Positions 17,677 to 38,842 of a DNA stretch of 64,000 nucleotides are shown here, piece by piece. The notes under the pieces were generated by a model, which was not told where the DNA came from, ran no database searches, and saw nothing but the letters and a program-made list of their open reading frames with translations. Both the position numbers and the translations under genes were made by a program. Positions within the stretch are counted from its first letter, which is position 1, and each line of letters opens with the position of its first letter. The stretch is from an uncultured Planctomycetia bacterium (GTDB lineage Bacteria; Omnitrophota; Gorgyraeia; Tantalellales; Tantalellaceae): the NCBI GenBank assembly GCA_964527765.1, contig CAZGQR010000008.1, positions 14,264 through 78,263 of the forward strand, given 5' to 3'.

Positions 17677-18225
17677 TCAAGGTTTTTGAGGTTCCTTTAA
17701 AATGTTAAATCTTATTACCATCAAAGCTATTACACTGCCCGCGGCATTCAGGACGGCATCCCTCCAGTCAAAGACCCTGTTCGGCAGTAACAGCTGAATG
17801 ATCTCATCCAGAAAACCCGCACTCAGGCAGAACAGGGAACCGAAAAGATAGAGTTTTTTATCGAACCTGTCGATGTCTATTTTCAGCGCGTTATAAACAA
17901 AAACCCCCAGAAGCGCGTATTCGATCAGATGTATCTTCTCCACGGGGAATCTCGACAGTCTGTTCAGCGCCAGGAATATCCAGACGAACAGAAAGAATAA
18001 AAGGTAACTGTTCGGGGACCTTTCTTTTTTCACAAAGATCATATAAGCAAAGAGGCAGACAGCCGCGATGAAAAAGACGATGTACACCGGGATAGTGCCT
18101 TTACCGCCTAAAGATGCGTTAAACCCGTCCCAGATCCGCGGAGCGACCCCGAGAGTGGAATAAACAACCATCAGGTATAACGCGGTTATCGCCCACCAGA
18201 CTTTTCTCAGGTATTTCTTTCTCAT
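17677..18225 (-). CDS. VanZ-like family membrane protein
   Basis: It has 4-5 TM segments and contains EKIHLIEYALLGVF and GFLDEIIQLLLPNRVFDWRDAVLNAAG, matching the VanZ-family conserved core. The start was chosen at MRKKYL to avoid a long overlap with the upstream gene. Confidence 0.65.
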   Translation of the reverse strand: MRKKYLRKVWWAITALYLMVVYSTLGVAPRIWDGFNASLGGKGTIPVYIVFFIAAVCLFAYMIFVKKERSPNSYLLFFLFVWIFLALNRLSRFPVEKIHLIEYALLGVFVYNALKIDIDRFDKKLYLFGSLFCLSAGFLDEIIQLLLPNRVFDWRDAVLNAAGSVIALMVIRFNILKEPQKP

Positions 18226-18248
18226 AAGACCCTTCTTTAAACCGCGGT

Positions 18249-19430
18249 TTACTCCGCAGGCGCGGCCACTGCGGACCTTCTGCGGGTACATACGGTTTTG
18301 AGCGTTTTACCGAAAATTATAAGAAAATGCCTTATCAAATAGGGGTACACCATAAAACTCAACAGGACAAATTTCACCGTATCCCATATGCTGTCGAACA
18401 TGACCAGTTCGGCAATGTAACCCGTGCTTGTGCCGGCATTTCTTATCTTACGGAAGAACCAGCGGTCGCTTTTTTTTGCCGACCGCCCCAGGTCCTCGAA
18501 CACCGCCCCGGGCACAGGCGTGCCGAACATATTCTTCGTGAAAAGAAGCGCGTAATAAAGCGGTTTTCTTATCCTGTACTTCCCGGCGGCGCCTGTCACC
18601 TCTTCCCAGCTTATCTCCCCCTCATGCTTCCGGATAAACTCATTGATATCGACATACCATCTGACACCCGAGAAGCTGTGCTGCATGGATACGTGCAGGC
18701 ACTGATAAAGAAGCGTGTGGACGATATCCAGCGTGCGTAACCTCACACCGCCCGCGCTGAGCACTCTCGCACGCTCCAGGATCCCGTTCACATCCATATT
18801 GAGGATCCTGTTGTGCAGCATGCGCCCGATAAAACTCCTGTGAACATCCAGGCATATCCCGTCGTCCCGGACATACAGTTTCTGGGCCCTGTAATCATCG
18901 GGGTCCCCCTTGCCGTCAGAGGGCGTAAATCCCTGCGCCTTCAATATCCCGTGGACCTTCCGCGCGTCTTCCGGCCGCACCAGCAGGTCGATATCAGCCA
19001 TCTCCCTGAGGCCGATATCGCCGTACACATCCATCAGATAGGAAACCCCTTTCGTGAAGATCACGTCCACCCTTTCCTTCCGGAAAAGATCCGACAGCGA
19101 TCCGGCGGCATCGAGGTTCCTGACATTGTAAGCAAAGATCTCGGCGGTCCATTCCCTCAAACGGGCATTCACCCTTTCGGGGATACCGCCGAAACCCTGC
19201 AGGGACCTGTAAGCGAGCGGGGACACCTGATATACATTGGCGAGTTCCAGGAAGCGGTCCCAGTCCACTTTTCCCGAGCGAAGTATCGACCCCGCTTCCG
19301 ACCGCTCCTTTTCGCCTAGAGACGTCCTGGAAAAGAGGATGACGAGCTTTTCCTCGACAGCCCTCGGTCCGGAAGGGCCGAGATCAATGGCCGGAAAAAT
19401 ATCTATCTGCTGCGTGATCATTCTGGGCAT
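18249..19430 (-). CDS. Uncharacterised nucleotidyltransferase family protein (NTP_transf_5 / PF14907-like)
   Basis: It contains ADIDLLV and a surrounding GS...D.D-type Pol-beta-like nucleotidyltransferase core. It is about 390 aa with an alpha-helical C-terminus. This architecture is typical of the family that recurs in RiPP neighbourhoods. Confidence 0.65.
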   Translation of the reverse strand: MPRMITQQIDIFPAIDLGPSGPRAVEEKLVILFSRTSLGEKERSEAGSILRSGKVDWDRFLELANVYQVSPLAYRSLQGFGGIPERVNARLREWTAEIFAYNVRNLDAAGSLSDLFRKERVDVIFTKGVSYLMDVYGDIGLREMADIDLLVRPEDARKVHGILKAQGFTPSDGKGDPDDYRAQKLYVRDDGICLDVHRSFIGRMLHNRILNMDVNGILERARVLSAGGVRLRTLDIVHTLLYQCLHVSMQHSFSGVRWYVDINEFIRKHEGEISWEEVTGAAGKYRIRKPLYYALLFTKNMFGTPVPGAVFEDLGRSAKKSDRWFFRKIRNAGTSTGYIAELVMFDSIWDTVKFVLLSFMVYPYLIRHFLIIFGKTLKTVCTRRRSAVAAPAE

Positions 19431-20138
19431 TTAAAAAAGGTCTATAAAGCTGCTGCCGGTCACGTGGATATCGGACCCGGGACCGTACCGCCTTTCCGCT
19501 GTTTCGATGATCCTCTCAAGAAACCTGCCGGCAAACTCAGCGTTCCTGTCCCTGTGCCTGACATGTATATCGACGATAACACCGTGTTCCTTTTCCATCC
19601 TAACCGCGGCATTCGCGCTCCTGGATCCTCCCACAAAAGCATAGACCTTAAATCCGCCCCTGCTCTTGTGGACGGTGAAAAACATGCCTCTATAAAAAAG
19701 CTTTCTGGTGTTCCTATAAAGCGCGCCTTTGGAAAAAACCAAAAGGACCGGATCGAGGAATCTCCTCTTAATAAGAAGAGGTGTCAGGTTATGGCGTGAA
19801 AGAACGGCGATGACCCTGCCTGCCCGGCGCCGGAGGAAGGAATCCAGGGCAAAGACCCTGTCGCCTCTTTTTACGGTTACCACTTTCCCTCTGACCCCTG
19901 AAAAAGGGACCATCTCGCCTGAACCGGCAAGGGTATTATCGCCCTTGGTAACCAAATATTCCTCTTTCTTATTGACACTGAGAACACGATGGATAGCGGT
20001 CGTCCCGTTCCCGGAGATACTGTAAGTTATTATATCGCCTGACCCGATCAAACAGGGGTCGAATTCCTGACATATACATTCGTCCAGGGTTTTGATAAAA
20101 GGATACATGCTCTGGCCGTGAACAATGATCTTGCTCAT
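19431..20138 (-). CDS. Signal peptidase I-like (S26/S24 Ser-Lys) domain fused to a C-terminal domain of unknown function, possibly GNAT-like
   Basis: The N-terminus contains IVHGQSMYPF (Ser nucleophile box) and YLVTKGDNTLAGSGE (Lys / box-E-like). The C-terminal ~110 aa have no clear motif. It lies immediately downstream of the candidate precursor gene. Confidence 0.6.
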   Translation of the reverse strand: MSKIIVHGQSMYPFIKTLDECICQEFDPCLIGSGDIITYSISGNGTTAIHRVLSVNKKEEYLVTKGDNTLAGSGEMVPFSGVRGKVVTVKRGDRVFALDSFLRRRAGRVIAVLSRHNLTPLLIKRRFLDPVLLVFSKGALYRNTRKLFYRGMFFTVHKSRGGFKVYAFVGGSRSANAAVRMEKEHGVIVDIHVRHRDRNAEFAGRFLERIIETAERRYGPGSDIHVTGSSFIDLF

Positions 20139-20154: not shown

Positions 20155-20454
20155 TTAAATGACGCCTAACCCGCTCTTGCACGTGTTAAAAGCGGCGTTG
20201 CCGTCTTTACAGGAAATAGTAGCCATCATGCCGTCCTTGCAGTGTTTCGGGGTCGGAGAATACTGGGATCCGGTAGAGCACCCCAGCGTGGCCGTACCCC
20301 CGTCCCTACATTGCCCGCCGGCCACCGCGCCGAAATCACAGAGCTGGCCCGCGCTGTGCCCGCTTTTGCAGTTGAACGCCTGGGCCCCCTTGATCGTCGC
20401 GCTGCTCAGATCGTGTGCGAGGGGCGGTGTGTATTTCTTCTTTTTCCTTTTCAT
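20155..20454 (-). CDS. Candidate RiPP/cofactor precursor peptide: 99 aa, Gly-rich, 7 Cys, seven C-x-x-G repeats
   Basis: It has a strong GAGGTGA Shine-Dalgarno sequence 6 nt upstream of the ATG. The sequence is MKRKKKKYTPPLAHDLSSATIKGAQAFN-CKSG-...-CDFG-...-CRDG-...-CSTG-...-CKDG-...-CKDG-...-CKSG-LGVI. It has no hydrophobic signal peptide. It is flanked by PqqD, peptidase, rSAM/SPASM and ABC exporter genes. Confidence 0.6.
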   Translation of the reverse strand: MKRKKKKYTPPLAHDLSSATIKGAQAFNCKSGHSAGQLCDFGAVAGGQCRDGGTATLGCSTGSQYSPTPKHCKDGMMATISCKDGNAAFNTCKSGLGVI

Positions 20455-20465
20455 GCATCACCTCT

Positions 20466-20738
20466 TCAGGTTTTATATCCGATAAATCCGGTCTTTTTCA
20501 TGTCTTTGATAAAAGCACTATAGTCCCCGGCGGCTTTATCGAGAGTGACATCATAGGCCTCTGTCATCTTTTCGACAATGCCGGGGGCCGCATTACCGCC
20601 GTCGCACAGGTCCCAGACGAACATGCCTGTCTCATTTATGCACAGCATATGCCCGTCCGAGGGATTGAAAAGAAGCGCTTCTTTCTGTTCTTTCCGCGCT
20701 ACAATATCAGGATTTCTCACGGGATATTTCTTTTTCAT
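20466..20738 (-). CDS. PqqD-family peptide chaperone (stand-alone RiPP recognition element)
   Basis: It reads MKKKYPVRNPDIVARKEQKEALLFNPSDGHMLCINETGMFVWDLCDGGN...IVEKMTEAYDV...FIKDMKKTGFI. It has a PqqD-like length and motif order. The start was chosen at MKKKY; the track ORF starts at 20810. Confidence 0.7.
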   Translation of the reverse strand: MKKKYPVRNPDIVARKEQKEALLFNPSDGHMLCINETGMFVWDLCDGGNAAPGIVEKMTEAYDVTLDKAAGDYSAFIKDMKKTGFIGYKT

Positions 20739-22452
20739 GGCCGGTCCTCTCTTTTTCAAGTTCGAACACCTTATCAGTGAACCACTCCGCGGTATCTCTA
20801 TGGGTAACAAAAAGAACGGTCATCTCCGGGAAACACGTCCTTATGCCTCTTAGGATATCGTCCTCCATCCCGGGGTCCAGAAAGGAGGTCGCCTCGTCCA
20901 TTATGAGTATCTTTGGTCTTCTCACCAGCGCTCTTGCGATCGCGACACGCTGCTTCTGCCCTCCCGAGAGAGACGACCCCAGCTCCCCTATGTCTGTATT
21001 ATAGCCGATGGACATCTCATCGGCAAGTTCGTCAAGCTTTGCCAGGCGCATGATATCCCGGACAAAACCTTCGGGCTTCTTTTCCCCCAAAAGCACATTT
21101 CTGATAATAGTATCATTGAATATGTACGGTTCCTGATGAACACAGGAGATATGCCTGGAAAAAGAGCTCATATTCATATCACGTATATCTATTCCCCCGA
21201 TCGAGATCCCCCCGCTCCAGGGTTTAAAAAGCCTGAGCAACAGGCCCAGAAGCGTCGTTTTACCCGCGCCGGAAGGCCCGGTTATCAGAGTCCATTTTCC
21301 GGCCGGCGCCACCAGATCCAATCCCCGGAAAAGAGCTTTGTCCCTGCTGTAGCCGAATGTAATATCGCTGGCCTCTATGTCCCCGCTGAACAAGGATACA
21401 TCCGGTACCCGTAAAGCTGGCCGGATCCCCTGGGGCTGCGTGATATCCCTGATGAAAACGGCATTTCTCTCTATTGACCGCCTTTCTTCGCTCAGGTTCT
21501 GGGCTATAGCTCCCAGGTTGTAAAACTCCGACAATATCATGGCGGAATACATGCTTACCGCGCTGAAAGAGCCGAGACTCAGTTTTCCGGTTATGATAAA
21601 ATATCCCCCTAAAAGCCAAAAAACCGCGGTACTCGCCTTCGAGAGGATATCGAATGCGATCCGTTCGTTCTGCCTGAAGACAGAAGACTTTCGCTCCATC
21701 CGGACCTTCCGCCGGAAAAGCTTCATTATCCTGTCCACTGCCCAGTCTTCCTTGAAAAAGCTCTTCACCAGTTTGATGTTTATAAGAAGATCATTGAACA
21801 GCGCGCCGTACCTGCTCGAAAAAAAGATATAACCGCTCTTTAGCCGCTGACGGCCCCGTGCCGCCCAGACCGTATGGATCGCCACCAGCGGCAGCGATAA
21901 AAGCACGAGCAGGCTCAGCTGCCAGGAAAGCAGGAACGAGAGGATAAAAAATACGGGTATCTTGACAAAGGAAAAGAAAGCCGGCAGTTCATAGAACACC
22001 AGGTTTTCGATGACTCCGCAGTCGTAATTCGCGAAAAAAGCGTTCTCCGCGGAACTCAGCTTTTTTATTTTCAGGTAATCGAGCCCGAAAAGCCTCCTCG
22101 CAAGATCATAGTTAACTTCAATGGAAAACTCTGTCCTGGCGCCGAGCATCAACCTCTCCGCCGCTATCTGCAATGCCTTCATCAACAGGAACACCAGAAG
22201 CCCGAGCACGGTGAACTTCACAAAAGCGCTAAGATCCCCGGCCATTATACCCTTATCCAGCGTGATCTTGGTTATGTAGATGATCAGAAGCCCGAGCGGA
22301 AAACTCAAAAGCTTCAGGATAAAGGCACGGGTCAATGAATTTCGGAACTTTCTCAGGATACCGAAAGCATAGACCAGAATGGTCCTGATATCCCCGAGAA
22401 CGGAAGTACCTCTCCCCAGCAGCGGATCCAGACTAAGTTTCAGGTCAAACAT
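20707..22452 (-). CDS. ABC exporter, fused permease/ATPase (type I exporter; no N-terminal C39 peptidase domain)
   Basis: It has six N-terminal TM segments, then Walker A GPSGAGKTTL, the signature LSGGQKQR and Walker B ILIMDEATS. Confidence 0.85.
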   Translation of the reverse strand: MFDLKLSLDPLLGRGTSVLGDIRTILVYAFGILRKFRNSLTRAFILKLLSFPLGLLIIYITKITLDKGIMAGDLSAFVKFTVLGLLVFLLMKALQIAAERLMLGARTEFSIEVNYDLARRLFGLDYLKIKKLSSAENAFFANYDCGVIENLVFYELPAFFSFVKIPVFFILSFLLSWQLSLLVLLSLPLVAIHTVWAARGRQRLKSGYIFFSSRYGALFNDLLINIKLVKSFFKEDWAVDRIMKLFRRKVRMERKSSVFRQNERIAFDILSKASTAVFWLLGGYFIITGKLSLGSFSAVSMYSAMILSEFYNLGAIAQNLSEERRSIERNAVFIRDITQPQGIRPALRVPDVSLFSGDIEASDITFGYSRDKALFRGLDLVAPAGKWTLITGPSGAGKTTLLGLLLRLFKPWSGGISIGGIDIRDMNMSSFSRHISCVHQEPYIFNDTIIRNVLLGEKKPEGFVRDIMRLAKLDELADEMSIGYNTDIGELGSSLSGGQKQRVAIARALVRRPKILIMDEATSFLDPGMEDDILRGIRTCFPEMTVLFVTHRDTAEWFTDKVFELEKERTGHEKEISREKS

Positions 22453-23246
22453 GAAAAAACGCTTTCGTGTTTTTTAAAATCCAGCATTCGAAACCCGACA
22501 CGTTCAACGATGTCGTTCATTATATCAAAAACATTCCTCAAGTATTCTCCCCTGTCCACAGCTCCCACGTTTTCGCGGAAAAAAGAGGCCGATTCGGGCA
22601 GGGCCCTGCGCAGGGCCTCGATCCCGGAAACGGAGCTTACCCCGTTCTTATCGGACTTGTTGAGCAGAAAAACGCCGCCTATCTCCCATTCCTCGGGATG
22701 GCCCCACAGAGGTAGAAAACACGGAAAACGCGCCGCGAAAAACCTCTCGCCGGACCTTTTTACCACGCAGAAATCATCATGTATCACATGCAGGCCTTTT
22801 TTCCCGGCCAGGGAACATATCGTGCTTTTTCCGCCCCCGCTCGGAGCGATGAAAAGATGGGCTTTACCGTTCATCACCACGGAAGCCGAATGTATAAAAA
22901 CTATATCCAGGACGCTTTGAAGATCCATGACCGAAAGATTAAGAAGCCTGTCCACCAAAAAATCGACAGATAGTCCCCTTTCGAAAAAACAGAATATTCT
23001 CCTTCTTTCGGCGTCATAAAGCTGCGCGACCCTTTTCCCGTGAACCGTTTTAATGTCGGCTCTCAGGGAACTTTTTTGTATCCTGACCGATATATCCGTC
23101 CTCCCGCACCTGTACAGGAATATATCAAGATCCGCTTGTTCCGCCTCGGACGGACCGGCTGGCTTGAATATCACCGGCCTTTCCTGAAAATTAAGAAAAT
23201 TCAGCCGTATGTTCGTTCCCAGAGCTTTATAACAGATCTTTTCCAT
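22440..23246 (-). CDS. HPr kinase/phosphorylase C-terminal-domain-like P-loop kinase (HprK-related)
   Basis: It contains FIHSASVVMNGKAHLFIAPSGGGKSTICSLA (P-loop) and HDDFCVV. It is 268 aa and has no HprK N-terminal domain. This type tailors peptides in RiPP clusters. Confidence 0.65.
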   Translation of the reverse strand: MEKICYKALGTNIRLNFLNFQERPVIFKPAGPSEAEQADLDIFLYRCGRTDISVRIQKSSLRADIKTVHGKRVAQLYDAERRRIFCFFERGLSVDFLVDRLLNLSVMDLQSVLDIVFIHSASVVMNGKAHLFIAPSGGGKSTICSLAGKKGLHVIHDDFCVVKRSGERFFAARFPCFLPLWGHPEEWEIGGVFLLNKSDKNGVSSVSGIEALRRALPESASFFRENVGAVDRGEYLRNVFDIMNDIVERVGFRMLDFKKHESVFSCLT

Positions 23247-24369
23247 ATCCCGCTCTCAGGGCTTCAGGCACGAGCCTGGTCGAAGGGAAAAAACCGTTAT
23301 CATAGGCTTCCTGACAGAACCAGTATGGAGCGAAAAGGTTCCCGGTGTTATGGTAGACCTCGGCTCTGCAGCTCCCCAGACATCTGTTCCTGAAAACACA
23401 GATACCGCAAACGCCCTCCAGGTTGAACGGTATTTCCTTCTTTATCCTGTTAAGAAGGGCGTTCTCGCGCCATATATGCCCCAATTTGGAAGGGTCTTTC
23501 CTGACCGTTCCGAAAACCAGTTTTTCATCAATATGGCCTATTCCGCATATAGATACGCTCCCGTCGGGCAGGATGCCGAGTATGTTCTTGATATTGCACA
23601 CCCCGCAGATCCCCGTGCGCACTTCCTCGACGCTCTTAAAAGCCACCGGTATGTCCAGATACAACAATCCACGGTATGATCTCCTGATGCCTTCAAGCTT
23701 CTCGGCGAATTCCAGGAGCTCTCTGACGGAAGGCACTTCCCCTCTTTCATGCAGTTCGGCTCCCCTGCCCAGGGGTGATATCGTATTCAATTTGATATTG
23801 TTCACCCCCAGTTCCCACATCGACTCTATAAACCCGATAATATCGGCAAAATTCTCCCTGTACATGCTTATTATCACCTGCGGGAACACGCCTTCCGCGA
23901 CCAGCGCCCTGATCCCTGCCAATGCCCTTTTGAACGCCCCCTTCCTTCCTCTGAAATGGTCGTTCATTTCCTCCAGGTGGCTGTCAAGGCTTACGGATAT
24001 ATAAAACGCCTTGTATTTTTTTATGGCGGAGGCCATCTTGCCGTCAATGAGGGTACCGTTCGTTTCTATGCCCACTTTTATATCCTCATCATGGCAAAAC
24101 CGTAATAGTTCTCCGATATCTTTCCGCAGCAACGGTTCGCCTCCGGTAAACTTCACATCCTTAAGCCCCAGTTCTTTCGCCGCTTTAATAATGGCGACTA
24201 TCTCCCCTGTCGATAGCTCCTCGTCATCATCCAGGCTTTCTTTCAAGGGAGGGGATATCCAACAATGCCTGCACCTCAGGTTACAATACCTGGTGGGATT
24301 TATATATAAACTTGTGAGATCTTTCCCGGGTATCCCGCTATCCGTGTTCCTCTTGTCACATAACCCCAT
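23227..24369 (-). CDS. Radical SAM/SPASM-domain enzyme 1
   Basis: It has a CNLRCRHC (CxxxCxxC) site near the N-terminus. The C-terminus has Cys clusters CGVCNIKN...SICGIG and CGICVFRNRCLGSCRAEVY (SPASM). The start was chosen at MGLCDK (24369), directly after the upstream stop. The track ORF is extended 5-prime. Confidence 0.8.
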   Translation of the reverse strand: MGLCDKRNTDSGIPGKDLTSLYINPTRYCNLRCRHCWISPPLKESLDDDEELSTGEIVAIIKAAKELGLKDVKFTGGEPLLRKDIGELLRFCHDEDIKVGIETNGTLIDGKMASAIKKYKAFYISVSLDSHLEEMNDHFRGRKGAFKRALAGIRALVAEGVFPQVIISMYRENFADIIGFIESMWELGVNNIKLNTISPLGRGAELHERGEVPSVRELLEFAEKLEGIRRSYRGLLYLDIPVAFKSVEEVRTGICGVCNIKNILGILPDGSVSICGIGHIDEKLVFGTVRKDPSKLGHIWRENALLNRIKKEIPFNLEGVCGICVFRNRCLGSCRAEVYHNTGNLFAPYWFCQEAYDNGFFPSTRLVPEALRAGYGKDLL

Positions 24370-24374
24370 ATAGC

Positions 24375-25472
24375 TTACCTCTGTTTTGACAAAACAATAT
24401 CCTCTTGCACCCTGAAGCCGTACAGATCCGAGAAAACAAGACAGGTCGACATGTTGATACCTCTCAAGTTCTCTCCGGCCGAATAATAAGCCGCCGCCCG
24501 GCATCCTCCGTTGCAATACGTGAGATAATCGCACCTGCTGCATTCTTTCCCGTATTTGACGAGAGGCTCATCCGCAAGCGACCTTATCTCGTTAAGGACT
24601 CCGGAATTCTCCCAGATATCCCTGAGCGACTGCTTCCTTGTGTCGCCGCAGACCAGCGTCCAGAACGCCGAACACGGGACCACCTTTCCGTCGGAACGTA
24701 TGGCCAGCATGGTATGTCCCGCGGGACAGGTAGAAAACGTCCCCCTGGCCCCCTTATCGCGGCCTTTCGCATAAAAGTCGCAAAGCATGTTTGTTTTCTG
24801 GCCGAGCGTCCCGCCCAGGCTGAAACCGGGATATTTCTCTTTCAACCGGAACATGGTCTCCATTATCCGGCGGTGCATCCCGCCCTCAAAGGTCAGTTCA
24901 TTGGCATAAACGGAAGCTCTGCCGCATGTCACGGCATCGCCGAAATCCATGCCCGAAAGGCCGAGGTCCATGGCCAGACGGACCATGTTCTCGATATCGT
25001 CCAGATTGTGTCTGTTGACTATGGCCTTGATGGAAACCGGAAGCTTTTCTTTTATGAGAAGTCTGACGCCGTTCAACGCTTTCTCGAATGAACCTTCCCC
25101 CCGCTGCCAGTCGTGGGCGGAAGCGCTGGAACCGTCGATGCTCACCTGCGTCCCGGCCAGGAACCTCATGCCTCTCATCCACTCCACGGCTTCCTCTCCG
25201 ATAAGGGTACCGTTGGTAAGGATGGTGACCCTCATCGGATAATTGTTAAGTATGCCCAGAAGTTCACGGATCCTCGGATAAATGAACGGCTCTCCGCCGA
25301 AGAGGTTCAGGCTAAAAACCTTCTCTGCCTTAAGCTGGTCCAGCACCTTTATTAATTCATCAAAGGAAAGCTGGTCTTTAAGATGCCAGGTGTCGGAAGT
25401 ATTGCAGTGCTTGCACCTCAGATTGCACCTGCCGGTAATGGCCAGGTCCACTATGGTGGGAAAAGGTCTCAT
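24375..25472 (-). CDS. Radical SAM/SPASM-domain enzyme 2
   Basis: It contains ITGRCNLRCKHC at residues 13-23. The C-terminus has CPAGHT...VVPCSAF...CGDT...CSRCDYLTYCNGGCRAAAY (twitch/SPASM). It has no N-terminal RRE. Confidence 0.85.
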   Translation of the reverse strand: MRPFPTIVDLAITGRCNLRCKHCNTSDTWHLKDQLSFDELIKVLDQLKAEKVFSLNLFGGEPFIYPRIRELLGILNNYPMRVTILTNGTLIGEEAVEWMRGMRFLAGTQVSIDGSSASAHDWQRGEGSFEKALNGVRLLIKEKLPVSIKAIVNRHNLDDIENMVRLAMDLGLSGMDFGDAVTCGRASVYANELTFEGGMHRRIMETMFRLKEKYPGFSLGGTLGQKTNMLCDFYAKGRDKGARGTFSTCPAGHTMLAIRSDGKVVPCSAFWTLVCGDTRKQSLRDIWENSGVLNEIRSLADEPLVKYGKECSRCDYLTYCNGGCRAAAYYSAGENLRGINMSTCLVFSDLYGFRVQEDIVLSKQR

Positions 25473-25491: not shown

Positions 25492-26269
25492 TTAATATTT
25501 TTCTCCGAATACCGACGCGCAGTGCTTAAATATTATCAGGCCCTCGGAATTAAAAAGCCATATTATCCTGTAAAAATCCTCTTTGGACAACGCGGTTGCC
25601 AATTTCTTGTTCACATCCCGCCGGACGGCTTTCAGGTCTCTTGTGCCGTCAAAAAATTTTACAAGATCCATAAGGGCTTTATCATCAAGACCGGGATTCG
25701 CAAAATCACGGCGAGAGGTAACCAGGCCGCATTTGCTCGTAACGTCCTTTACGAAATGAAGTTCCCTTTTTTCCCTGGAATAAAAAAGCGTCTTCAACCT
25801 GGTAAGAGGATTTGAAACGAACTTCATATCCTCCTTAAGCATTTCCATGATATACTCGTCAAGGCCTTTTTTCCTTTCCTTTTCGGGCTTCCGGCCCCTG
25901 GGCAGGTAGGCAAAGGATATTTGCCAGCCGTCCCTGCAGTAAAATTTTCTGCACGCCCCCGGCCTGTCCGGATAGATCGAGCATCTGTTGTCCTTGCCCA
26001 GGTACACGCAGGACCTGTCAGGTCTCCTCTCAAGCCACCACTCCCTGTTAACGCAGCTGGAGTCCTTGTTTTCGCATTCCTTCCTGGTCAGCCTGCATAC
26101 CTCCCTGGCCTTGTATTTTCCGGACCGGAACTCCTTCTCGCTGAGATTTACGTCATACGTCCTGCAGCAGATCGCCTCGCACAGGTCGCGGACCTCATCG
26201 CAGTTCCCGTTGCCGAAGAAAAGCCTTTTGTTTTTCGCGTCCAGTTTTAATTTTTGAGATCTCTTCATG
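25492..26269 (-). CDS. YkgJ-family (UPF0153, CxxCxxCC-type) putative Fe-S/Zn-binding protein with a C-terminal PqqD-like tail
   Basis: It contains CDEVRDLCEAICC and CVYLGKDNRCSIYPDRPGACRKFYC, matching the YkgJ pattern. The C-terminal ~100 aa (LMDLVKFFDGTRDLKAVRRDV...YRIIWLFNSEGLI) resemble a PqqD/RRE fold. The start is MKRSQK, with a GGGGGC Shine-Dalgarno sequence. The track ORF is over-extended. Confidence 0.6.
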
Positions 26270-26308
26270 ACGCCCCCGGGTGCTTGTGTAAGATGTGTGA
26301 CTCTTTGC

Positions 26309-26336
26309 TGAAACGTTATTATAACAGATTTTCCCT
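26309..26336 (-). promoter_or_regulatory. Predicted strong sigma70 promoter heading the rSAM/precursor operon
   Basis: On the minus strand the -35 is TTGATG and the spacer is 16 nt. An extended -10 TGTTATAAT follows. It lies in the 72-nt gap between the aminotransferase stop and the YkgJ start. Confidence 0.5.
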
Positions 26337-26341
26337 TATCA

Positions 26342-27403
26342 TCAAAGGTATGCCTTGACCGCGTCGATGACCCTTTCCTGTTCTTGCGCGCTGAGGGAAG
26401 GGTAGATAGGTATGGACAAACAGCCGGAATAGGCCTCGTCCGTGCTCCGGAAACCGGACCTGAGCTCCAGGTACCGGTGCAGCGGTTTATACACGGGCCT
26501 TTTGCAGATAATGCCCTTTTCACCCATCCGTGAGATCGCCGCCGATATATCCTTTTTTGTCCTTACTACGTACCGGTAATAAACATGGTCGAATTCGCCC
26601 TTCGGCAACACCAGGTCCAGGTCCTTGAAAGCTTTATCATAACGCACGGCTATTTCTTTTCTCCGTCGGATAAATCCGGGGAGTTTTTCAAGCTGCGCCA
26701 CTCCCATGGCGGCCTGCACGTCCGTCATCTTGTAATTGAAGCGGACCCTGTAGTCCTCTTTCTCGTCATAATCGCGGAGGTCCCGCGCGAGGCGAAGGAT
26801 CTCCTCGTCATCGGAAAGAAGCGCCCCGCCTTCGCCGCAGGCCAGCATCTTATTGGCGTAAAAGGAAAGGATGCCGAAACGCCCGATACTTCCCGCCCGC
26901 CTGTCCCCGTACATCGCCCCGATAGACTGGGCGCAATCCTCAACAACGGGAACACCCGCCTCCTTGATCCTCCCGATGTCAGCGGGATTTCCGAACATGT
27001 GCGGCACGATAACGGCACCGGCGGCATCCGTTATATTATCTTTAACGCTCTCCGGGGAAATATTAAAACTTTCCGGTTCTATATCGCAGAGGCGGGGCCC
27101 GGCACCTGTCTGATATACGGCATTCAACGGCGCGCTGCACACATAGGACGGAAGCAGCACATCATCACCCGGACCCACTCCCAGGGCCGCAAGGCCCAGA
27201 TGCAGGGCTGATGTGCCTGAACTGGTCACGACCGCCGCCCTGACGCCCGCGAACCGGGCCAGGCGCTCCTCAAGCTCCCTTACCCTGTCCCCCTGGGTAA
27301 TATGTCCTGACTTTATTACTTCCGAAACTGCCTTTAACTCTTCATCTCCCAGAGTAGGCCTCGAATGCGGAATGATCTTTTCGGCCATATATGATCCTTT
27401 CAT
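26342..27403 (-). CDS. DegT/DnrJ/EryC1/StrS-family PLP-dependent sugar aminotransferase
   Basis: It contains a TSSGTSALHL...ED.AQS...G region and the catalytic-Lys region SFYANKML. Confidence 0.85.
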   Translation of the reverse strand: MKGSYMAEKIIPHSRPTLGDEELKAVSEVIKSGHITQGDRVRELEERLARFAGVRAAVVTSSGTSALHLGLAALGVGPGDDVLLPSYVCSAPLNAVYQTGAGPRLCDIEPESFNISPESVKDNITDAAGAVIVPHMFGNPADIGRIKEAGVPVVEDCAQSIGAMYGDRRAGSIGRFGILSFYANKMLACGEGGALLSDDEEILRLARDLRDYDEKEDYRVRFNYKMTDVQAAMGVAQLEKLPGFIRRRKEIAVRYDKAFKDLDLVLPKGEFDHVYYRYVVRTKKDISAAISRMGEKGIICKRPVYKPLHRYLELRSGFRSTDEAYSGCLSIPIYPSLSAQEQERVIDAVKAYL

Positions 27404-27408
27404 TCTTG

Positions 27409-28029
27409 CTACTCGATATCCAGCAGATACCTTAGCGCCCGGAATCCCTCGGCATATTTGACCTTGGCCTGGAATCCGCGAAAATTGGCAACCGCAATAA
27501 CACTCTCGACCATATCCAGACTGGTAGGGTATTCCCTTTCCACCTGCGACCTGTGAAGCTTTAGAAGTTTGCCCTTTTCATGCAGTTCTTCCCCGATATC
27601 CACGAAGATATCCGGCTCGAAGTTCCTGGACGTGTAATCCTCGTAAAAGATGACCTTCTTGTGATATCGCGCGGCGACGATGGTGCTTTCGGTAAGATAC
27701 CTGTGATCCTGGTGAGTGTCGTCGGGGTAATTGACGAAGATCAGGTCAGGATCGCATTCCTTTATGGCTTCTTCTATCTTCTCTATAAGTTCTTTACTGG
27801 CCGTGAGGCGCGTATCCATGAACCCGCCCCAGTAGACCTTTTTCACCCCCAGAAATTCAGCGGCTTTTTCCTGCTCCTTTATCCTGACCTCCGCTCCCCC
27901 GCTGAAATCACCATGGGTCGCTATGAAAAAACGTATATCCGCCTTTCGCCGTTTTTTCAGCTTCAAAAGCGTCCCCCCGCATCCGTACTCTATGTCATCC
28001 GGGTGCGCGCCTATCGCTAATATATTCAT
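27409..28029 (-). CDS. PIG-L/LmbE-family N-acetyl-sugar deacetylase
   Basis: It contains LAIGAHPDDIEYGCGGT and HQDH, which are zinc-dependent LmbE-like motifs. Confidence 0.8.
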   Translation of the reverse strand: MNILAIGAHPDDIEYGCGGTLLKLKKRRKADIRFFIATHGDFSGGAEVRIKEQEKAAEFLGVKKVYWGGFMDTRLTASKELIEKIEEAIKECDPDLIFVNYPDDTHQDHRYLTESTIVAARYHKKVIFYEDYTSRNFEPDIFVDIGEELHEKGKLLKLHRSQVEREYPTSLDMVESVIAVANFRGFQAKVKYAEGFRALRYLLDIE

Positions 28030-28712
28030 TGCTTTCTCCCTTCTCTTATAATGTCAAGACTTTTCCCGCCGCAGCAGAACAGTAGGTCCACGACCGACAT
28101 GTGCGGATAGAATCCGTTGAATATCTGGCTGTAACCGGGGTGCGAATAAGCCTGGAATTCAAGCGCGATCCCGCTTTTCCGGAACCGTTCTTTATCAAGG
28201 TAGTCGTCCCCGCCCGCTCCGGACACATACGTATCGGCTTTCAATTTTTCACAAATATCGACCAGTCTCTCCGTCTTGCCCGTTCCAACCCCTAAAGAAG
28301 AACTCCTGATGAGCTCCGCGCCTATTCCCAGCGTCTCTTTCAAATAACGGATGAAATGAATGTTAACATCCGCCAGGAACTCCCATTCCCTGTTAAAAGT
28401 ATCACTGAAAAACGGAAGATATTCCTTGAAATAAGGCGCGCGCGAGTAATTGAGCTCCAGCCCCTTGAGATGCTTGTTTCGCCAGGGCTGACGGCCATCT
28501 ATCCTGACGTCCTTGAGCAGCTGGCCGAACTCATACAGGACCGGCACCGTGAGCCACTGCCATCCTTCGGCATTGCGGATCTTGTTCCGGTTCTGCCACT
28601 CGTTCTTCTTGTACTGCACGTCATCCAGCAGGACAAAAACATCCGCCCGGTCCATTTTATCAAAATATCCCAGCCAGGGCAAATATTGCGGTTGATGAAT
28701 GGCTACTTTCAT
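28026..28712 (-). CDS. WbqC-like family protein
   Basis: It contains MKVAIHQPQYLPWLGYFDKM...DDVQY, the characteristic N-terminus of the WbqC-like family found in O-antigen loci. Confidence 0.65.
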   Translation of the reverse strand: MKVAIHQPQYLPWLGYFDKMDRADVFVLLDDVQYKKNEWQNRNKIRNAEGWQWLTVPVLYEFGQLLKDVRIDGRQPWRNKHLKGLELNYSRAPYFKEYLPFFSDTFNREWEFLADVNIHFIRYLKETLGIGAELIRSSSLGVGTGKTERLVDICEKLKADTYVSGAGGDDYLDKERFRKSGIALEFQAYSHPGYSQIFNGFYPHMSVVDLLFCCGGKSLDIIREGRKQ

Positions 28713-29734
28713 GTTCTCAGAAAATACCCCTTGTTTTGAACGACCCAGTCAATGAGGGCCTGCACGCCCTCTTCGACCTTGACTTTCGGCTTCCAGCCGA
28801 GGTCCTTGCGGGCTTTTTCGATATCACAGACAAACGTTTTCTGGTCTCCCGGGCGCCAATCGTCGAAACCGTACCGGACTTTCCTGTCCAGGGACCGCTC
28901 CAGCATGGAGATCAGCTCAAGCAGAGACAGGACATTTCCCGCCCCCCCGCCTATATTGTAAGCATTCCCGCCGGCTTTACCGATCTTATCGATCGCCTTC
29001 AGATAACAATCAACAAGATCACCTATCCAAAGGATATCTCTGGTCTGTTTGCCGTCGCCGTAAATAGTGATGGGGCTTCCCAGAACGGAGCATATCGTAA
29101 AGTGCGCCACCCAGCCCTGGTCCTCCACGCCAAACTGGCGCGGCCCATAAATGCATGACTGGCGGAAATCCACAGTCCTTAAACCGTATATCCTGGCGTA
29201 ATCCACTACATATTGATCCGCGGCGCCCTTGGAACAGCCATACGGAGAATGAAAATCCAGGGTCCTGTCCTCCGGGATGCCGCGAGGCAAGGACTTATAC
29301 CGATATTTTCCCTCTTTCTCGACCACTTCCAGATCATCCATGGCCCCGTAGACCTTGTTGGTCGAAGCGTTAAGAAGGACCGCCTCCGGCCGGAACCTCC
29401 TTACGCCCTCGCATATGTTAAACGTTCCCAGGGCATTGATCTCAAAATCTTCCCTCGGGTCCGACACGGAGAGGGTCACCGCGACCTGTGCCGCCATGTG
29501 CAGGACAACATCAATGCCCTTGCAATCAGTAAAACATGCCTTGACCTGCCTAAAATCCCTTATATCCCCTTTTAAAAAAGTGAATTTCGCCCGCTGTTCC
29601 AGCCATTCAAGGTTTTTTCCGGCGCCTTTACGGGACAAGTTATCAAAAATAATGACCTCATGACCTTCTTTAAGGAACCGTTCCGCGGAGTTTATCCCTA
29701 TAAAACCGGCCCCGCCGGTGATCAAGACTTTCAT
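28709..29734 (-). CDS. NAD-dependent sugar epimerase/dehydratase (CDP-paratose 2-epimerase-like SDR)
   Basis: It contains a TGGAGFIG Rossmann motif, a YxxxK site (YGCSKGAADQY) and a PRQFGVEDQGWVAHF region. Confidence 0.85.
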   Translation of the reverse strand: MKVLITGGAGFIGINSAERFLKEGHEVIIFDNLSRKGAGKNLEWLEQRAKFTFLKGDIRDFRQVKACFTDCKGIDVVLHMAAQVAVTLSVSDPREDFEINALGTFNICEGVRRFRPEAVLLNASTNKVYGAMDDLEVVEKEGKYRYKSLPRGIPEDRTLDFHSPYGCSKGAADQYVVDYARIYGLRTVDFRQSCIYGPRQFGVEDQGWVAHFTICSVLGSPITIYGDGKQTRDILWIGDLVDCYLKAIDKIGKAGGNAYNIGGGAGNVLSLLELISMLERSLDRKVRYGFDDWRPGDQKTFVCDIEKARKDLGWKPKVKVEEGVQALIDWVVQNKGYFLRT

Positions 29735-30912
29735 TTCCTTACCTCGCTTCCTGTTCTCGCGCTGAGCAACTCCCTGTATAACGCGTCCAGTGCGTCCACC
29801 ATTTTTTCCGCGGAATAATCGGCAAGCGCTTTTTTCCTTTCCTTCTCCCCCATGTGACGGGCCTCTTCAGTGTTGTCAAGAAGCTCATCCAGCGCTTTCG
29901 ATATGGCATCGGAAGAAGCCGACTCTATCAGAATACCGGCATTATCAAAAACAAGGGAAGAGACGCCGCCGACACGCGTCGCTATTACAGGTTTTCCCAA
30001 AAACATGGCTCCGACCAGCGTCCGCCCCATACCTTCGTTTAGCGAAGGCAGGACAAAAATATCAAGCGCGTTAAGCACGGCTCCGGTATTCTCCTGCCAC
30101 GGAATTATGTGAAATCTGTCCGTGATATCCGCGGCTGTCAGCATTTTCAGATATTTCCCGCGAAGCGGGCCATCGCCGGCTAAAAGAAAATGTATGTCTC
30201 TCTTCTTTTCCAGCTGTTTTACCGCCGCTTCTATAAAATACTCATATCCTTTTATTTCTATGAAACGCCCTATGGACCCTACCAGAACCTTGTCCGGCGG
30301 TATCCCGAGTTTTTTTCTCCAATCGACGCCGCTATTCACTTCACGTTCCAGATTTTCAAACTCTATGCCGCTGGGGATAGCGGTATAAAGATCTTCACCG
30401 CCGATCTCGTAACACAACCATTCATAACACTCCGCGCCGGTAAGGCCGATGATCTTGTCCGTTATCCGCGCGGCCATCCTCTCGGCCGATAATATCAGGT
30501 CGGTCAATATTCTTCCGAAATATTCGTAAAACACGTGCCCGTGAGGCGTAAAAACTATTTTTTCAATTCCCGCGCACCTGGCCGCGACACGGCATATGAA
30601 TCCCGCTTTATGCGAATGAGCGTGCATTATATCATATTTATTCCGGCGCATGAAACGCAGTATCTTAAAGAAAGCTATAATATCCCTTACCGGATGAACA
30701 TTTCTCACAAGGTCTTTTTGCGAAATAAAACGAACGCCCGCTTTTTTAGCCCTTTCAATAAGATCTTCATAAGGGTTTTCCGTATACCCGAATAAAAGAT
30801 CTACCGCGTATCCTTTTTGCGCGAGCCCGATAACGCTCAAAAGCGTATTCTCCGAAGAACCGCCTTTATCAAGCCTGGTAATCGCGTGTAATATTTTAAT
30901 TTTCTTTCTCAT
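29731..30912 (-). CDS. Glycosyltransferase family 4 (GT-B)
   Basis: It has a C-terminal EGMGRTLVGAMFLGKPVIATRVGG EX7E-like motif. Confidence 0.8.
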   Translation of the reverse strand: MRKKIKILHAITRLDKGGSSENTLLSVIGLAQKGYAVDLLFGYTENPYEDLIERAKKAGVRFISQKDLVRNVHPVRDIIAFFKILRFMRRNKYDIMHAHSHKAGFICRVAARCAGIEKIVFTPHGHVFYEYFGRILTDLILSAERMAARITDKIIGLTGAECYEWLCYEIGGEDLYTAIPSGIEFENLEREVNSGVDWRKKLGIPPDKVLVGSIGRFIEIKGYEYFIEAAVKQLEKKRDIHFLLAGDGPLRGKYLKMLTAADITDRFHIIPWQENTGAVLNALDIFVLPSLNEGMGRTLVGAMFLGKPVIATRVGGVSSLVFDNAGILIESASSDAISKALDELLDNTEEARHMGEKERKKALADYSAEKMVDALDALYRELLSARTGSEVRK

Positions 30913-30915
30913 ATA

Positions 30916-33063: not shown

Positions 33064-33068
33064 CTCTA

Positions 33069-33920
33069 TTATGAAGGTAAATATTTACGGCGCTTTCCCA
33101 GTTTCTTTTTTGCGCCGTCCGTAATTCCGTCCAGTATGGCAATCGCCCTTTTTATCTTACCACCGGTAATATGAAAACAAAAGTTCTTTACGCCGTGAAG
33201 GAACAGTTTTAATGCCTTAAAATACTCCCTGTACTTGATATGCACCCATAATTCATTCCTGTATGCATAGTATATGCGAAAAGGCTGGGTATATGATTCC
33301 GTTCTGACCGTTCCGATCTTCCCCTGGATTTTTCCGGAAAAATCCAGGGAATCTATCCTGCTGGAAAAAATCAGATACATCCGATATCCCGCTTTCCTGA
33401 TCCGCAGGCCGTATTCCATGTCCCCGCCGTAAAGGAAGAGGGTTTTTTCGGGAAGTCCCGTTTTCTTTACGACTTCGGAAGAGACAAGCGTCCCCCGCCA
33501 GGCGAACAGGTCCTCGATCTCAAGGATGGGTGAATCTTTTTCGCTATCCCAGGACCGCGCGCTTCTTACGGCTCCCACTTTACCCTCTTTGCCGAGCATT
33601 ATCGCCCACTTGAGCAGTTCAGCAAGAGCGTTCTTCTCGGAAACACAGTCATCATCAAGCAACCAGACATAATCGCTGTCTTCATATGCAAGTTTTATGC
33701 CTTCGCAATACCCGCCCTCGCTTCCGATGTTATCCGGAAAATGTTCGTACTTCACGAAACTAAAATATGTTTCTATCATGCTCCTTGTATCGGTTCCCGG
33801 GCTGTTGTCGATCACGTATATCCGCTCCGGCACTACTGTCTGGGCCAGCATGCTCTCCAGGCATTTTTTCAAAATATGCGGGCGGTTATACGTCACCACG
33901 ACCGCGGCGATCTTTTCCAT
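33069..33920 (-). CDS. Glycosyltransferase family 2
   Basis: It contains VVVTYNRP, DNSPGTD, LLDDDC (DxD) and a GT-A fold. The start was chosen at MEKIAAV. Confidence 0.8.
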   Translation of the reverse strand: MEKIAAVVVTYNRPHILKKCLESMLAQTVVPERIYVIDNSPGTDTRSMIETYFSFVKYEHFPDNIGSEGGYCEGIKLAYEDSDYVWLLDDDCVSEKNALAELLKWAIMLGKEGKVGAVRSARSWDSEKDSPILEIEDLFAWRGTLVSSEVVKKTGLPEKTLFLYGGDMEYGLRIRKAGYRMYLIFSSRIDSLDFSGKIQGKIGTVRTESYTQPFRIYYAYRNELWVHIKYREYFKALKLFLHGVKNFCFHITGGKIKRAIAILDGITDGAKKKLGKRRKYLPS

Positions 33921-33924
33921 CTTT

Positions 33925-34935: not shown

Positions 34936-34959
34936 AAATAGCCCTCTCTGTAAGCTCTT

Positions 34960-36084: not shown

Positions 36085-36102
36085 GGCTTTACAAAACCCT
36101 AT

Positions 36103-38819: not shown

Positions 38820-38842
38820 TTATAGAACTCCAATGCTTCTTA

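Follow-up and report, generated by a model that had tools for sequence, protein, structure and literature searches.

An anchorless S26B signal peptidase homologue as candidate leader peptidase of an Scm-type radical SAM cassette

The S26-GNAT gene and its family

The window analyzed here is a stretch of 64,000 nucleotides (nt) of contig CAZGQR010000008.1 (assembly GCA_964527765.1, positions 14,264 to 78,263) from an uncultured Planctomycetia bacterium. It contains a gene for a soluble protein of 235 amino acids (aa) that joins a small S26 peptidase to a GNAT-like domain, here called S26-GNAT. The gene is part of a cassette of nine genes in the order ScmE, ScmF, ScmC, ABC exporter, PqqD, precursor peptide, S26-GNAT, NTP_transf_5 and VanZ, the coordinates of which are given in Table 1. 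Based on comparative sequence evidence we propose, with a probability of about 0.6, that S26-GNAT is a cytoplasmic, anchorless homologue of the S26B signal peptidases and acts as a leader peptidase dedicated to this Scm-type radical SAM cassette.

The start Met of the open reading frame (ORF) is common to the orthologues and no in-frame start is located upstream of it. A mis-called start that hides a transmembrane (TM) helix is ruled out on these grounds. A spacer of 16 nt separates the gene from the stop codon of the precursor gene upstream, and the TAA stop codon of S26-GNAT directly abuts the ATG of the NTP_transf_5 gene, an arrangement of translational coupling. Full-length homologues were found in public assemblies at 86, 79 and 57% identity, which shows that S26-GNAT is a real, conserved gene.

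A word-indexed protein search recovered just 4–7 family members, and it took an exhaustive search with HMMER, covering 1.84 billion representatives, to make the family visible. Using a threshold of E ≤ 1e-30, 18 clusters were identified, all but one of which aligned over the near-full query profile; the exception, protein P0021, covers the C-terminal part only. Another approximately 1,400 weaker matches comprise the peptidase core only. Metagenome contigs were scanned with a degenerate DNA pattern for [IV][RK][HY]RDRNxxFAxxF, which yielded ten loci, six of them true; all loci compared are numbered with the prefix L below. A scan of genome contigs returned only the metagenome-assembled genome of L001, which was already in hand, and no match was obtained with tblastn of the S26-GNAT protein against plasmids. 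The protein was modeled with AlphaFold2 (AF2). The model based on an alignment of 19 sequences had a mean predicted local distance difference test score (pLDDT) of 90.5 and a predicted template modeling score of 0.76, and the model based on four sequences (pLDDT 50.7) was discarded.

A Ser-His peptidase core of the S26B type

The beta-rich core of the protein is matched by the archaeal-type signal peptidase I model TIGR02228 of NCBIfam over residues 3–89 (E 5.9e-14, 52.2 bits). The corresponding bacterial model, TIGR02227, gave 15.2 bits against a cut-off of 47. The best sequence matches in the PDB are human SEC11C and SEC11A, in which GQSMYP of the window protein is aligned with SGSMEP, IHRV with VHRV, and TKGDN with TKGDN. 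Foldseek comparison of the AF2 core with 7p2p_A and 7p2q_A (SEC11A/C) gave a probability of 1.00, a root-mean-square deviation (rmsd) of 3.2–3.4 over approximately 100 columns and a target TM-score (TMt) of 0.49–0.51, at an E-value of only ~0.05. The fold of the core also resembles those of SipA (4n31) and SpsB.

The residues expected to form the active site are conserved to a very high degree. In 23 family members M11, P13, H50, R51, K65, G66, D67 and N68 are invariant, as is S10 wherever the N-terminus is present. The pattern extends to the more distant relatives, with Ser at the position of the nucleophile in 135 of 139 aligned sequences and Asp in the Asp67 column in 150 of 151. In the column of the general base, 150 of 152 relatives (from the 153 best) have His and not one has Lys, and since this column holds His, never Lys, the enzyme is predicted to be of the Ser-His type. 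Both the Ser and the His are critical in Bacillus subtilis SipW and in Sec11. Judged by its sequence, the N-terminal domain is an S26B Ser-His peptidase of the SEC11/SipW/archaeal type.

No TM segment was detected in S26-GNAT, for which the maximum of the Kyte-Doolittle plot over 19 residues is 1.06 (usual threshold 1.6), and Ser10 is located only ten residues from the N-terminus. A TM-like stretch within the first 40 residues was found in merely three of 123 short relatives, suggesting that the whole clade is anchorless at its N-terminus.

These results modify the original prediction made from the DNA alone, which had described a Ser/Lys protease without a membrane anchor, with S26/S24 boxes in the N-terminal ~120 residues. 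The boxes GQSMYP (S10) and KGDN (65–68) were found, in a core of ~97 rather than ~120 residues, and the protein came out anchor-free when tested for a predicted TM segment. The Ser/Lys assignment has to be abandoned, since the base position is the invariant His50. The suggested search with PF10502 and PF00717 gave no match at E ≤ 0.1, and only TIGR02228 was passed, by a small margin.

Residues 98–151 separate the core from the C-terminal domain and form helices at positions 101–115, 120–136 and 139–151 in the AF2 model. The helices are rich in Arg and Lys, with hydrophobic moments of 0.58 and 0.60, and S114 is invariant within the motif (A/F)LSRxxLTP. P0035 and P0037, two relatives without the GNAT-like domain, share the "LSR" helix (residues ~101–115), and only the GNAT-bearing family has residues ~118–151. 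In some relatives the amphipathic "AVLSR" helix is replaced by a hydrophobic C-terminal helix. The region equivalent to residues 98–151 contains many Trp residues in L024, and in P0030 and P0032 it is hydrophobic. The helices hint at a peripheral membrane association near the exporter, which is suggestive, and we make no claim of it.

A precursor family with a conserved presumed junction

The gene upstream of S26-GNAT is preceded by a strong Shine-Dalgarno-like sequence, GAAGAGGTGATGC, ahead of its ATG. The predicted leader, MKRKKKKYTPPLAHDLSSATIKGAQA, has a Lys-rich start and a KYxPPL motif that resembles a recognition site, and contains no hydrophobic core by the Kyte-Doolittle scale. Homologous ORFs are located at the same position in L001, L004, L006, L007, L022 and L023. 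They share the Lys-rich leader, the motif KY[TE][PA]P[LIM] and six to seven C-x-x-G repeats that are spaced by 9–13 residues, and their sequences make them a candidate precursor family for the Scm-type cassette.

A small-x-small motif is located one to three residues ahead of the first Cys, and we infer that it marks the junction between leader and core. In the cassettes with the GNAT-like domain the motif reads AQA/FNC (window, L001 and L022; the slash indicates the presumed junction), ARA/QNC (L006), AQA/SC (L023), HAAA/NC (L007) and FMA/VC (L004). In cassettes without this domain it reads VLG/VC (L031), LSG/C (L025) and PMG/VC (L024). Position –1 is Ala or Gly in all ten precursors and the neighboring positions vary. 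With Ala or Gly at –1 in all ten, the presumed junction would fit the –1/–3 rule of type I signal peptidases.

Conservation of the cassette

The order of the nine genes recurs in seven lineages, over which the identity of S26-GNAT decreases from 57% to 23%. The full order is observed in the window, L001/L012 (57% identity), L004 (23%), L022 and L023. In L006 (40%) it is seen from a partial ScmE gene onward and in L007 (41%) from a partial ABC gene onward, and L010 and L015 show just the genes for S26-GNAT, NTP_transf_5 and VanZ. S26-GNAT is located directly downstream of the precursor gene in the window, L001/L012, L004, L006, L022 and L023, and also in L007. The genes that surround the cassette are different in L004, which suggests that the cassette travels as a unit.

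The best NCBIfam matches of the two radical SAM enzymes, the PqqD-like protein and the HprK-related protein are ScmE, ScmF, ScmD and ScmC, which define the SynChlorMet cassette (ScmC–ScmF, TIGR04248–04251). All four proteins score below the curated cut-offs, so the cassette is considered to be related to, but distinct from, SynChlorMet. The match of the PqqD-like protein to the ScmD model TIGR04248 has an E-value of 9.8e-12 and 44.9 bits against a cut-off of 100, and lasso-type PqqD models match at ~6e-6. The orthologues of the ScmC protein carry PF27840 (ScmC). The ABC exporter gave no Pfam match to Peptidase_C39, and searches of the cassette proteins with Pfam and NCBIfam revealed no peptidase family besides that of S26-GNAT.

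Table 1. Features of the cassette in the window and of homologous loci. Positions refer to the window or to the locus indicated.
Feature	Locus	Position	Strand	Basis
S26-GNAT fusion gene, 235 aa, soluble (stop codon 19431–19433)	Window	19431–20138	–	ORF, orthologues, HMMER, AF2
S26 peptidase core, aa 1–97, beta-rich, no preceding TM helix	Window	19848–20138	–	TIGR02228, phmmer to SEC11C, Foldseek
Ser10 codon, predicted nucleophile (GQSMYP)	Window	20109–20111	–	Translation; aligns with Ser of SGSMEP in SEC11C
His50 codon, predicted general base (IHRV)	Window	19989–19991	–	Aligns with VHRV of SEC11A/C
Asp67 codon, KGDN box	Window	19938–19940	–	Aligns with TKGDN of SEC11
Helical segment, aa 98–151, three amphipathic helices	Window	19686–19847	–	AF2 secondary structure, conservation
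Truncated GNAT-fold domain, aa 152–235	Window	19434–19685	–	Foldseek, weak sequence matches, P0028
Precursor peptide gene, 99 aa, Cys-rich	Window	20155–20454	–	ORF, homologues at same position
Predicted leader, 26 aa, ends AQA (20377–20385)	Window	20377–20454	–	Translation, precursor alignment, hydropathy
Predicted core, 73 aa, seven CxxG repeats, starts FNCKSG	Window	20158–20376	–	Translation, alignment
PqqD-like leader-recognition protein (ScmD-like), 90 aa from orthologue Met	Window	20466–20738	–	Pfam PqqD, 56 bits
ABC exporter (permease and ATPase), 581 aa	Window	20707–22452	–	Pfam ABC_membrane 43–307, ABC_tran 377–523
ScmC, HprK-related P-loop protein	Window	22440–23246	–	TIGR04352, 5e-6; TIGR04249, 1.5e-4, 21.2 bits (cut-off 125)
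ScmF-like radical SAM/SPASM protein	Window	23227–24369	–	TIGR04251, 316.4 bits (cut-off 400); Pfam Radical_SAM, SPASM; start by orthologues
ScmE-like radical SAM/SPASM protein	Window	24375–25472	–	TIGR04250, 220.9 bits (cut-off 400); Pfam
NTP_transf_5 (PF14907) nucleotidyltransferase-fold protein	Window	18249–19430	–	Pfam, 171.9 bits
VanZ-like membrane protein, last conserved cassette gene	Window	17677–18291	–	Pfam VanZ, 38.4 bits; start probably internal (orthologues 179 aa)
Longest ORF, PqqD-like	Window	20466–20810		
Longest ORF, ScmF-like	Window	23227–24543		
Longest ORF, 258-aa protein	Window	25492–26523		
Conserved 258-aa protein	Window	25492–26268	–	
Conserved 258-aa protein	L001	3877–4653		
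Conserved 258-aa protein	L022	6979–7755		
Glycan operon	Window	26342–39547 and onward	–	
Glycan stretch	L001	1–3819		
Glycan stretch	L004	13510–20773		
Glycan stretch	L022	1–6833		
Glycan stretch	L023	1–7711		
Homologous precursor	L001	9681–9977		
Homologous precursor	L004	9711–9980		
Homologous precursor	L006	4520–4852	–	
Homologous precursor	L007	1015–1365		
Homologous precursor	L022	12832–13125		
Homologous precursor	L023	12862–13161		
VanZ-like gene	L024	8528–9124	–	
Sortase-like gene	L024	7199–7978	–	Faint Pfam match
DUF4012 protein	L024	9204–11792		
Radical SAM/SPASM part fused to ScmC-like domain, 611 aa	L025	2982–4817		
ScmC and S26-like pair beside large Laminin_G_3 or Propeptide_C25/DUF11 protein	L028	2261–6434		
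As above	L030	352–3068		
As above	L031	619–2630		

The longest ORFs of the PqqD-like, ScmF, 258-aa and VanZ-like proteins, all on the minus strand, start 24–85 codons beyond the starts called in the orthologues. The real starts are probably internal, at 20738 for PqqD, 24369 for ScmF and 26268 for the 258-aa protein.

An alternative reading is a housekeeping signal peptidase I, or otherwise an S24 LexA-like self-cleaving regulator, that is located here by chance. Automated pipelines would use the former name, given that the TIGR02228 cut-off is passed by 0.35 bits; the name given to P0047 by JGI is indeed "signal peptidase I", and some relatives show weak matches to Peptidase_S24. However, with no TM anchor the Sec substrates on the membrane's outer face would be out of reach, the base is His instead of the Lys of S24 and S26A, and the link to the cassette is strict over 23–57% identity, with translational coupling to NTP_transf_5. 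An enzyme that is anchorless, His-based and cassette-linked effectively refutes the housekeeping explanation, to which we attach hardly any weight. The LexA-like regulator was rejected based on the His in place of Lys, the presence of the GDN box and the lack of a DNA-binding domain.

In every lineage the VanZ-like gene is the last of the cassette, and the distantly related cassette of L024 has one as well; its product is possibly a self-immunity factor. The conserved 258-aa protein is encoded just upstream of ScmE in the window, L001 and L022, shows a weak match to CxxCxxCC (PF03692, E 0.0012) and is absent from L004 and L023. A very long glycan operon on the same strand, which comprises genes for PIG-L, DegT, WbqC, an epimerase, several GT4, GT9, GT2, PMT_2 and methyltransferases, carries the cassette at its 3' end, and glycan genes are likewise found in L001, L004, L022 and L023. 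The PIG-L and WbqC genes adjoin the cassette even in the otherwise different context of L004. The peptide may carry sugars or be linked to a glycan of the cell surface. Genes for NTP_transf_5 proteins on plasmids (L020 and L021) sit with HPr-kinase-like, ABC and glycosyltransferase genes, and no S26 gene was found beside these plasmid matches.

A truncated GNAT-like fold at the C-terminus

In the AF2 model the C-terminal domain consists of four strands, a long helix at residues 200–218 (GNAT alpha3) and a strand at residues 224–226 (beta5). Residues ~152–226 were matched by Foldseek to the GNATs 3pp9, 1xeb, 7n1l and 8yv7 over 70–88 columns with an rmsd of 2.2–3.2 (probabilities of 0.98–1.0, E-values of only 0.06–0.2). 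The model is without alpha4-beta6-beta7, as the chain stops nine residues past the strand that matches beta5. The RHRDRNAEFA loop occupies the position of the coenzyme A (CoA) pyrophosphate, and motif A (Q/R-x-x-G-x-G/A) reads R198-N-A-E201-F-A203, so that the ends are kept and the central Gly is replaced by Glu.

Weak sequence similarity to acetyltransferases was observed, to NAA20 (E ~1), to 7wx5, and for a profile of the domain to acetyltransferases in the PDB (E 0.24). None of the GNAT models (PF00583 and others) matched the window protein, nor did they match P0006, P0015, P0020 or P0022. The distant family member P0028 displayed a match to Acetyltransf_1 (PF00583) of 46 bits, significant matches to S24 and S26 and a cross-match to rimI. 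Since P0028 passes both the GNAT and the S26/S24 models, the ancestry is likely to be a genuine fusion of S26 and GNAT.

Two proteins, P0005 (621 aa) and P0016 (643 aa), run on into a full NTP_transf_5 domain. These triple fusions provide a Rosetta-stone link between S26-GNAT and the downstream gene. In the sampled contexts the GNAT-like domain is seen only where an NTP_transf_5 gene follows and is absent where that gene is absent.

A functional acetyltransferase would render the protein bifunctional, with the S26 domain removing the leader and the GNAT domain using acetyl-CoA to N-acetylate the newly exposed N-terminus of the core. N-acetylation follows leader removal in the microviridins (MdnD) and in goadsporin (GodH), and the GNAT-like fold found by Foldseek, the significant Pfam match of P0028 with its cross-match to the rimI-like N-terminal acetyltransferases, and the conservation of R198 and A203 at the Q/R and final G/A positions of the CoA loop are in line with such an activity. 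We nevertheless consider it unlikely, since the missing alpha4-beta6-beta7 correspond to motif B and the contacts to the adenine and pantetheine of CoA, the central Gly of RxxGxG/A is Glu, and the GNAT models and profile miss the window protein and its relatives as described above. Furthermore, the contig that encodes P0028 is only 1.1 kb, which is too short for gene context. Because the domain is truncated, is tied or fused to NTP_transf_5, and is dispensable in cassettes without it, a coupling or docking module, or a phosphate- or nucleotide-binding module, that joins cleavage to tailoring by NTP_transf_5 seems more likely than an acetyltransferase. The original prediction, which had suggested structure prediction for this half and a possible GNAT-like acetyltransferase, is borne out in part with respect to the fold, as given by AF2 and Foldseek; in a protein in which the fold is truncated and lacks the central Gly, N-terminal acetylation is possible and not favored.

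Relatives without the GNAT-like domain

All relatives of the peptidase core that were sampled and had a usable context lie in an Scm-like setting. L024 contains genes for PqqD, two radical SAM proteins, a precursor, ScmC, the S26-like protein (210 aa) and an ABC protein. In L025/L026 a precursor is followed by a radical SAM and ScmC fusion, a radical SAM protein, PqqD, the S26-like protein and another radical SAM protein. Shorter segments are seen in L029 (PqqD, S26-like, radical SAM), L031 (radical SAM, 64-aa precursor, ScmC, S26-like), L028 (ScmC, PqqD, 91-aa ORF, S26-like; no radical SAM gene) and L030 (ScmC, S26-like, then a Propeptide_C25/DUF11 protein).

The fusion protein in L025 has 611 aa and consists of the C-terminal part of a radical SAM/SPASM protein and an ScmC-like domain. 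It argues for a physical cooperation of ScmC with the radical SAM maturase. L024 is a groundwater metagenome contig, in which the cassette is flanked by a sortase-like gene and a gene for a DUF4012 protein.

Large surface proteins and a sortase-like gene are thus among the neighbors of some relatives, and in all long contexts seen the cassette adjoins amino-sugar and glycan genes. These neighbors, as well as the presence of SipA (4n31), a streptococcal pilus factor, among the fold matches, would fit a role other than proteolysis, either as a chaperone that binds peptides or proteins, similar to SipA, or as a transpeptidase similar to TraF, an S26-related pilin cyclase, in which an amine would resolve the acyl-enzyme; the peptide could then be cyclized or coupled to an amino-sugar that the products of the adjacent PIG-L, DegT and WbqC genes provide. 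We find this improbable. The Ser, His and Asp are invariant, unlike in catalytically dead homologues such as SipA, which have not retained them; the precursors show neither a conserved acceptor residue nor a sorting-type motif at the C-terminus; and the protein is cytoplasmic with neither a signal peptide nor a TM segment, as opposed to the TraF-type enzymes, which are membrane-anchored and of the Ser-Lys type.

Comparison with known systems

The signal peptidases I of the endoplasmic reticulum and the archaea (MEROPS S26B: SEC11A/C, yeast Sec11, B. subtilis SipW, archaeal signal peptidase) share with S26-GNAT the core fold and the SM.P, HRV and KGDN boxes, and their preference for small residues at –1 and –3 is compatible with the conserved AxA junction. 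Unlike these enzymes, S26-GNAT has neither an N-terminal TM anchor nor partner subunits and is predicted to be cytoplasmic. The substrate presumed for it lacks a hydrophobic h-region and does not belong to the Sec substrates. S26-GNAT also contains a helical extension and a GNAT-derived domain and is encoded in a cassette for peptide modification.

The maturation protease of nickel superoxide dismutase, SodX (S26, TIGR02754), is also a small homologue of the signal peptidases that is dedicated to the product of a neighboring gene. SodX removes a short N-terminal propeptide that is no secretion signal. It has been described as the "cognate peptidase for SodN" (PMC3919588). The TIGR02754 model cross-matches relatives of the window protein and does not match the window protein itself. 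The substrate of SodX differs in being an enzyme rather than a modified peptide, and SodX lacks PqqD, radical SAM and ABC partners as well as a GNAT-like domain. By analogy, among precedents for an S26 propeptide peptidase with a dedicated, non-secretory role, SodX comes closest in function.

A one-to-one parallel for the accessory proteins is provided by lasso clusters of the paeninodin and pseudomycoidin type (A, C, B1, B2, D, K, N), in which the leader peptidase is split into B1 and B2. Here, B1 corresponds to the PqqD-like ScmD and B2 to the separate protease, the HprK-type kinase PsmK would be the counterpart of the HprK-related ScmC and the uncharacterized NTP-transferase PsmN that of NTP_transf_5, and the ABC exporter D is likewise without C39. 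In pseudomycoidin, PsmK phosphorylates the peptide and PsmN is needed for the addition of hexose to the phosphate (PMC6993621). The parallel would extend to function if PsmN belongs to PF14907 and ScmC is a kinase. The proteases differ in fold, B2 being a transglutaminase-like Cys protease and S26-GNAT having the Ser-His S26 fold, and instead of a lasso cyclase the cassette has two radical SAM/SPASM enzymes and a precursor with CxxG repeats.

The GNAT N-acetyltransferases (PF00583; RimI-like) resemble residues ~152–226 in the core around the CoA loop. The window protein differs from them in that the last third of the fold and the Gly at the center of motif A are missing and in that all GNAT hidden Markov models fail on it.

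The leader peptidases of peptides that are made by the ribosome and modified after translation (RiPPs) described so far belong to S8, S9, C39, M16, M50 and transglutaminase-like families, among others. To our knowledge the curated definition of SynChlorMet names no precursor and no peptidase. The library that was searched yielded no relevant paper on the SynChlorMet cassette or the Scm genes, on the cassette described here, on RiPP leader peptidases of the S26 type, or on PF14907.

Discussion

The assignment of S26-GNAT as leader peptidase is based on its being the only peptidase in a cassette of conserved gene order, on the invariance of its catalytic residues and on the conserved motif at the presumed junction in the precursors. 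It is further supported by the soluble relatives without the GNAT-like domain, which fill the same niche in Scm-like cassettes. The original prediction had already proposed a dedicated leader peptidase, a soluble enzyme next to a precursor with no signal peptide and an exporter with no C39 domain. This setting was confirmed: the gene follows the 99-aa Cys-rich ORF, which has no hydrophobic core, by 16 nt, and the 581-aa exporter has no Peptidase_C39 match. The proposal itself has gained comparative support from the sole peptidase in the cassette, the order kept from 57% down to 23% identity and the junction motif, and was mistaken in the catalytic type.

Several observations weigh against this assignment. 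With respect to the enzyme, TIGR02228 is exceeded by just 0.35 bits (cut-off 51.85), neither of the Pfam models for S26 and S24 (PF10502, PF00717) matches the window protein at E ≤ 0.1, and the third residue of the triad is uncertain, E75 being partly conserved. With respect to the substrate, position –3 of the presumed junction is Ala, Val or Leu in eight of the ten precursors, with Phe in L004 and Pro in L024, and the putative cut after A26 is placed by the motif alone. Six of the seven cassettes with the GNAT-like domain come from related PVC/Omnitrophota-like genomes and have shared flanking synteny, with the glycan operon upstream and genes for a response regulator, tgt, yajC and secDF downstream. 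Because most of the lineages are related and share these flanks, the conserved gene order is likely to reflect inheritance in part. Finally, pairs of ScmC and S26-like genes are located beside genes for large Laminin_G_3 or Propeptide_C25/DUF11 proteins in L028, L030 and L031. Such neighbors, and the lack of a radical SAM gene in L028, suggest that the module of ScmC, PqqD and S26 may serve other substrates.

If S26-GNAT is the leader peptidase, the stand-alone PqqD-like protein would bind the conserved KYxPPL part of the leader, and the peptidase would depend on this recognition protein. The two radical SAM/SPASM enzymes, ScmC and NTP_transf_5 would modify the CxxG-repeat core, and the S26 domain would cut past the small-x-small motif A24-Q-A26, ahead of F27 and two residues before the first Cys. 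The core would then be shipped out by the C39-less ABC exporter, and the VanZ-like protein may protect the producer. In the course of evolution the enzyme would have lost its membrane anchor, and the substrate would be similar to a signal peptide in which the Lys-rich n-region and the AxA c-region were kept and the h-region is missing. Which substrate is cut and where, in what order the steps follow and what the GNAT remnant does are inferred from these patterns.

More speculatively, and with the odds rather against it, anchorless Ser-His homologues of the signal peptidases might represent an unrecognized, widespread class of PqqD-dependent leader peptidases in cassettes with ScmC, PqqD and radical SAM proteins. 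The enzyme and its substrate would have co-evolved from the Sec system by losing the parts that are embedded in the membrane. In the Omnitrophota type the peptidase would be joined to a degenerate GNAT, from which NTP_transf_5 receives the peptide, and the end result would be a Cys-rich peptide with thioether bridges and phospho-glycosylation that is tied to the adjacent surface-glycan pathway.

The assignment, if true, would add S26B as a new protease fold to the RiPP leader peptidases. Neither the precursor nor the leader-removing enzyme is known for many radical SAM peptide clusters, including those of the SynChlorMet type, which prevents their expression in heterologous hosts. With a soluble S26B peptidase whose small-x-small cut site can be read from the sequence, there would be a testable route to the mature product. 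For the anchorless S26B clade, the automated name "signal peptidase I" would be misleading. The combination of an anchorless enzyme with a "signal peptide" without h-region would represent a secretion module that has been re-used in the cytoplasm.

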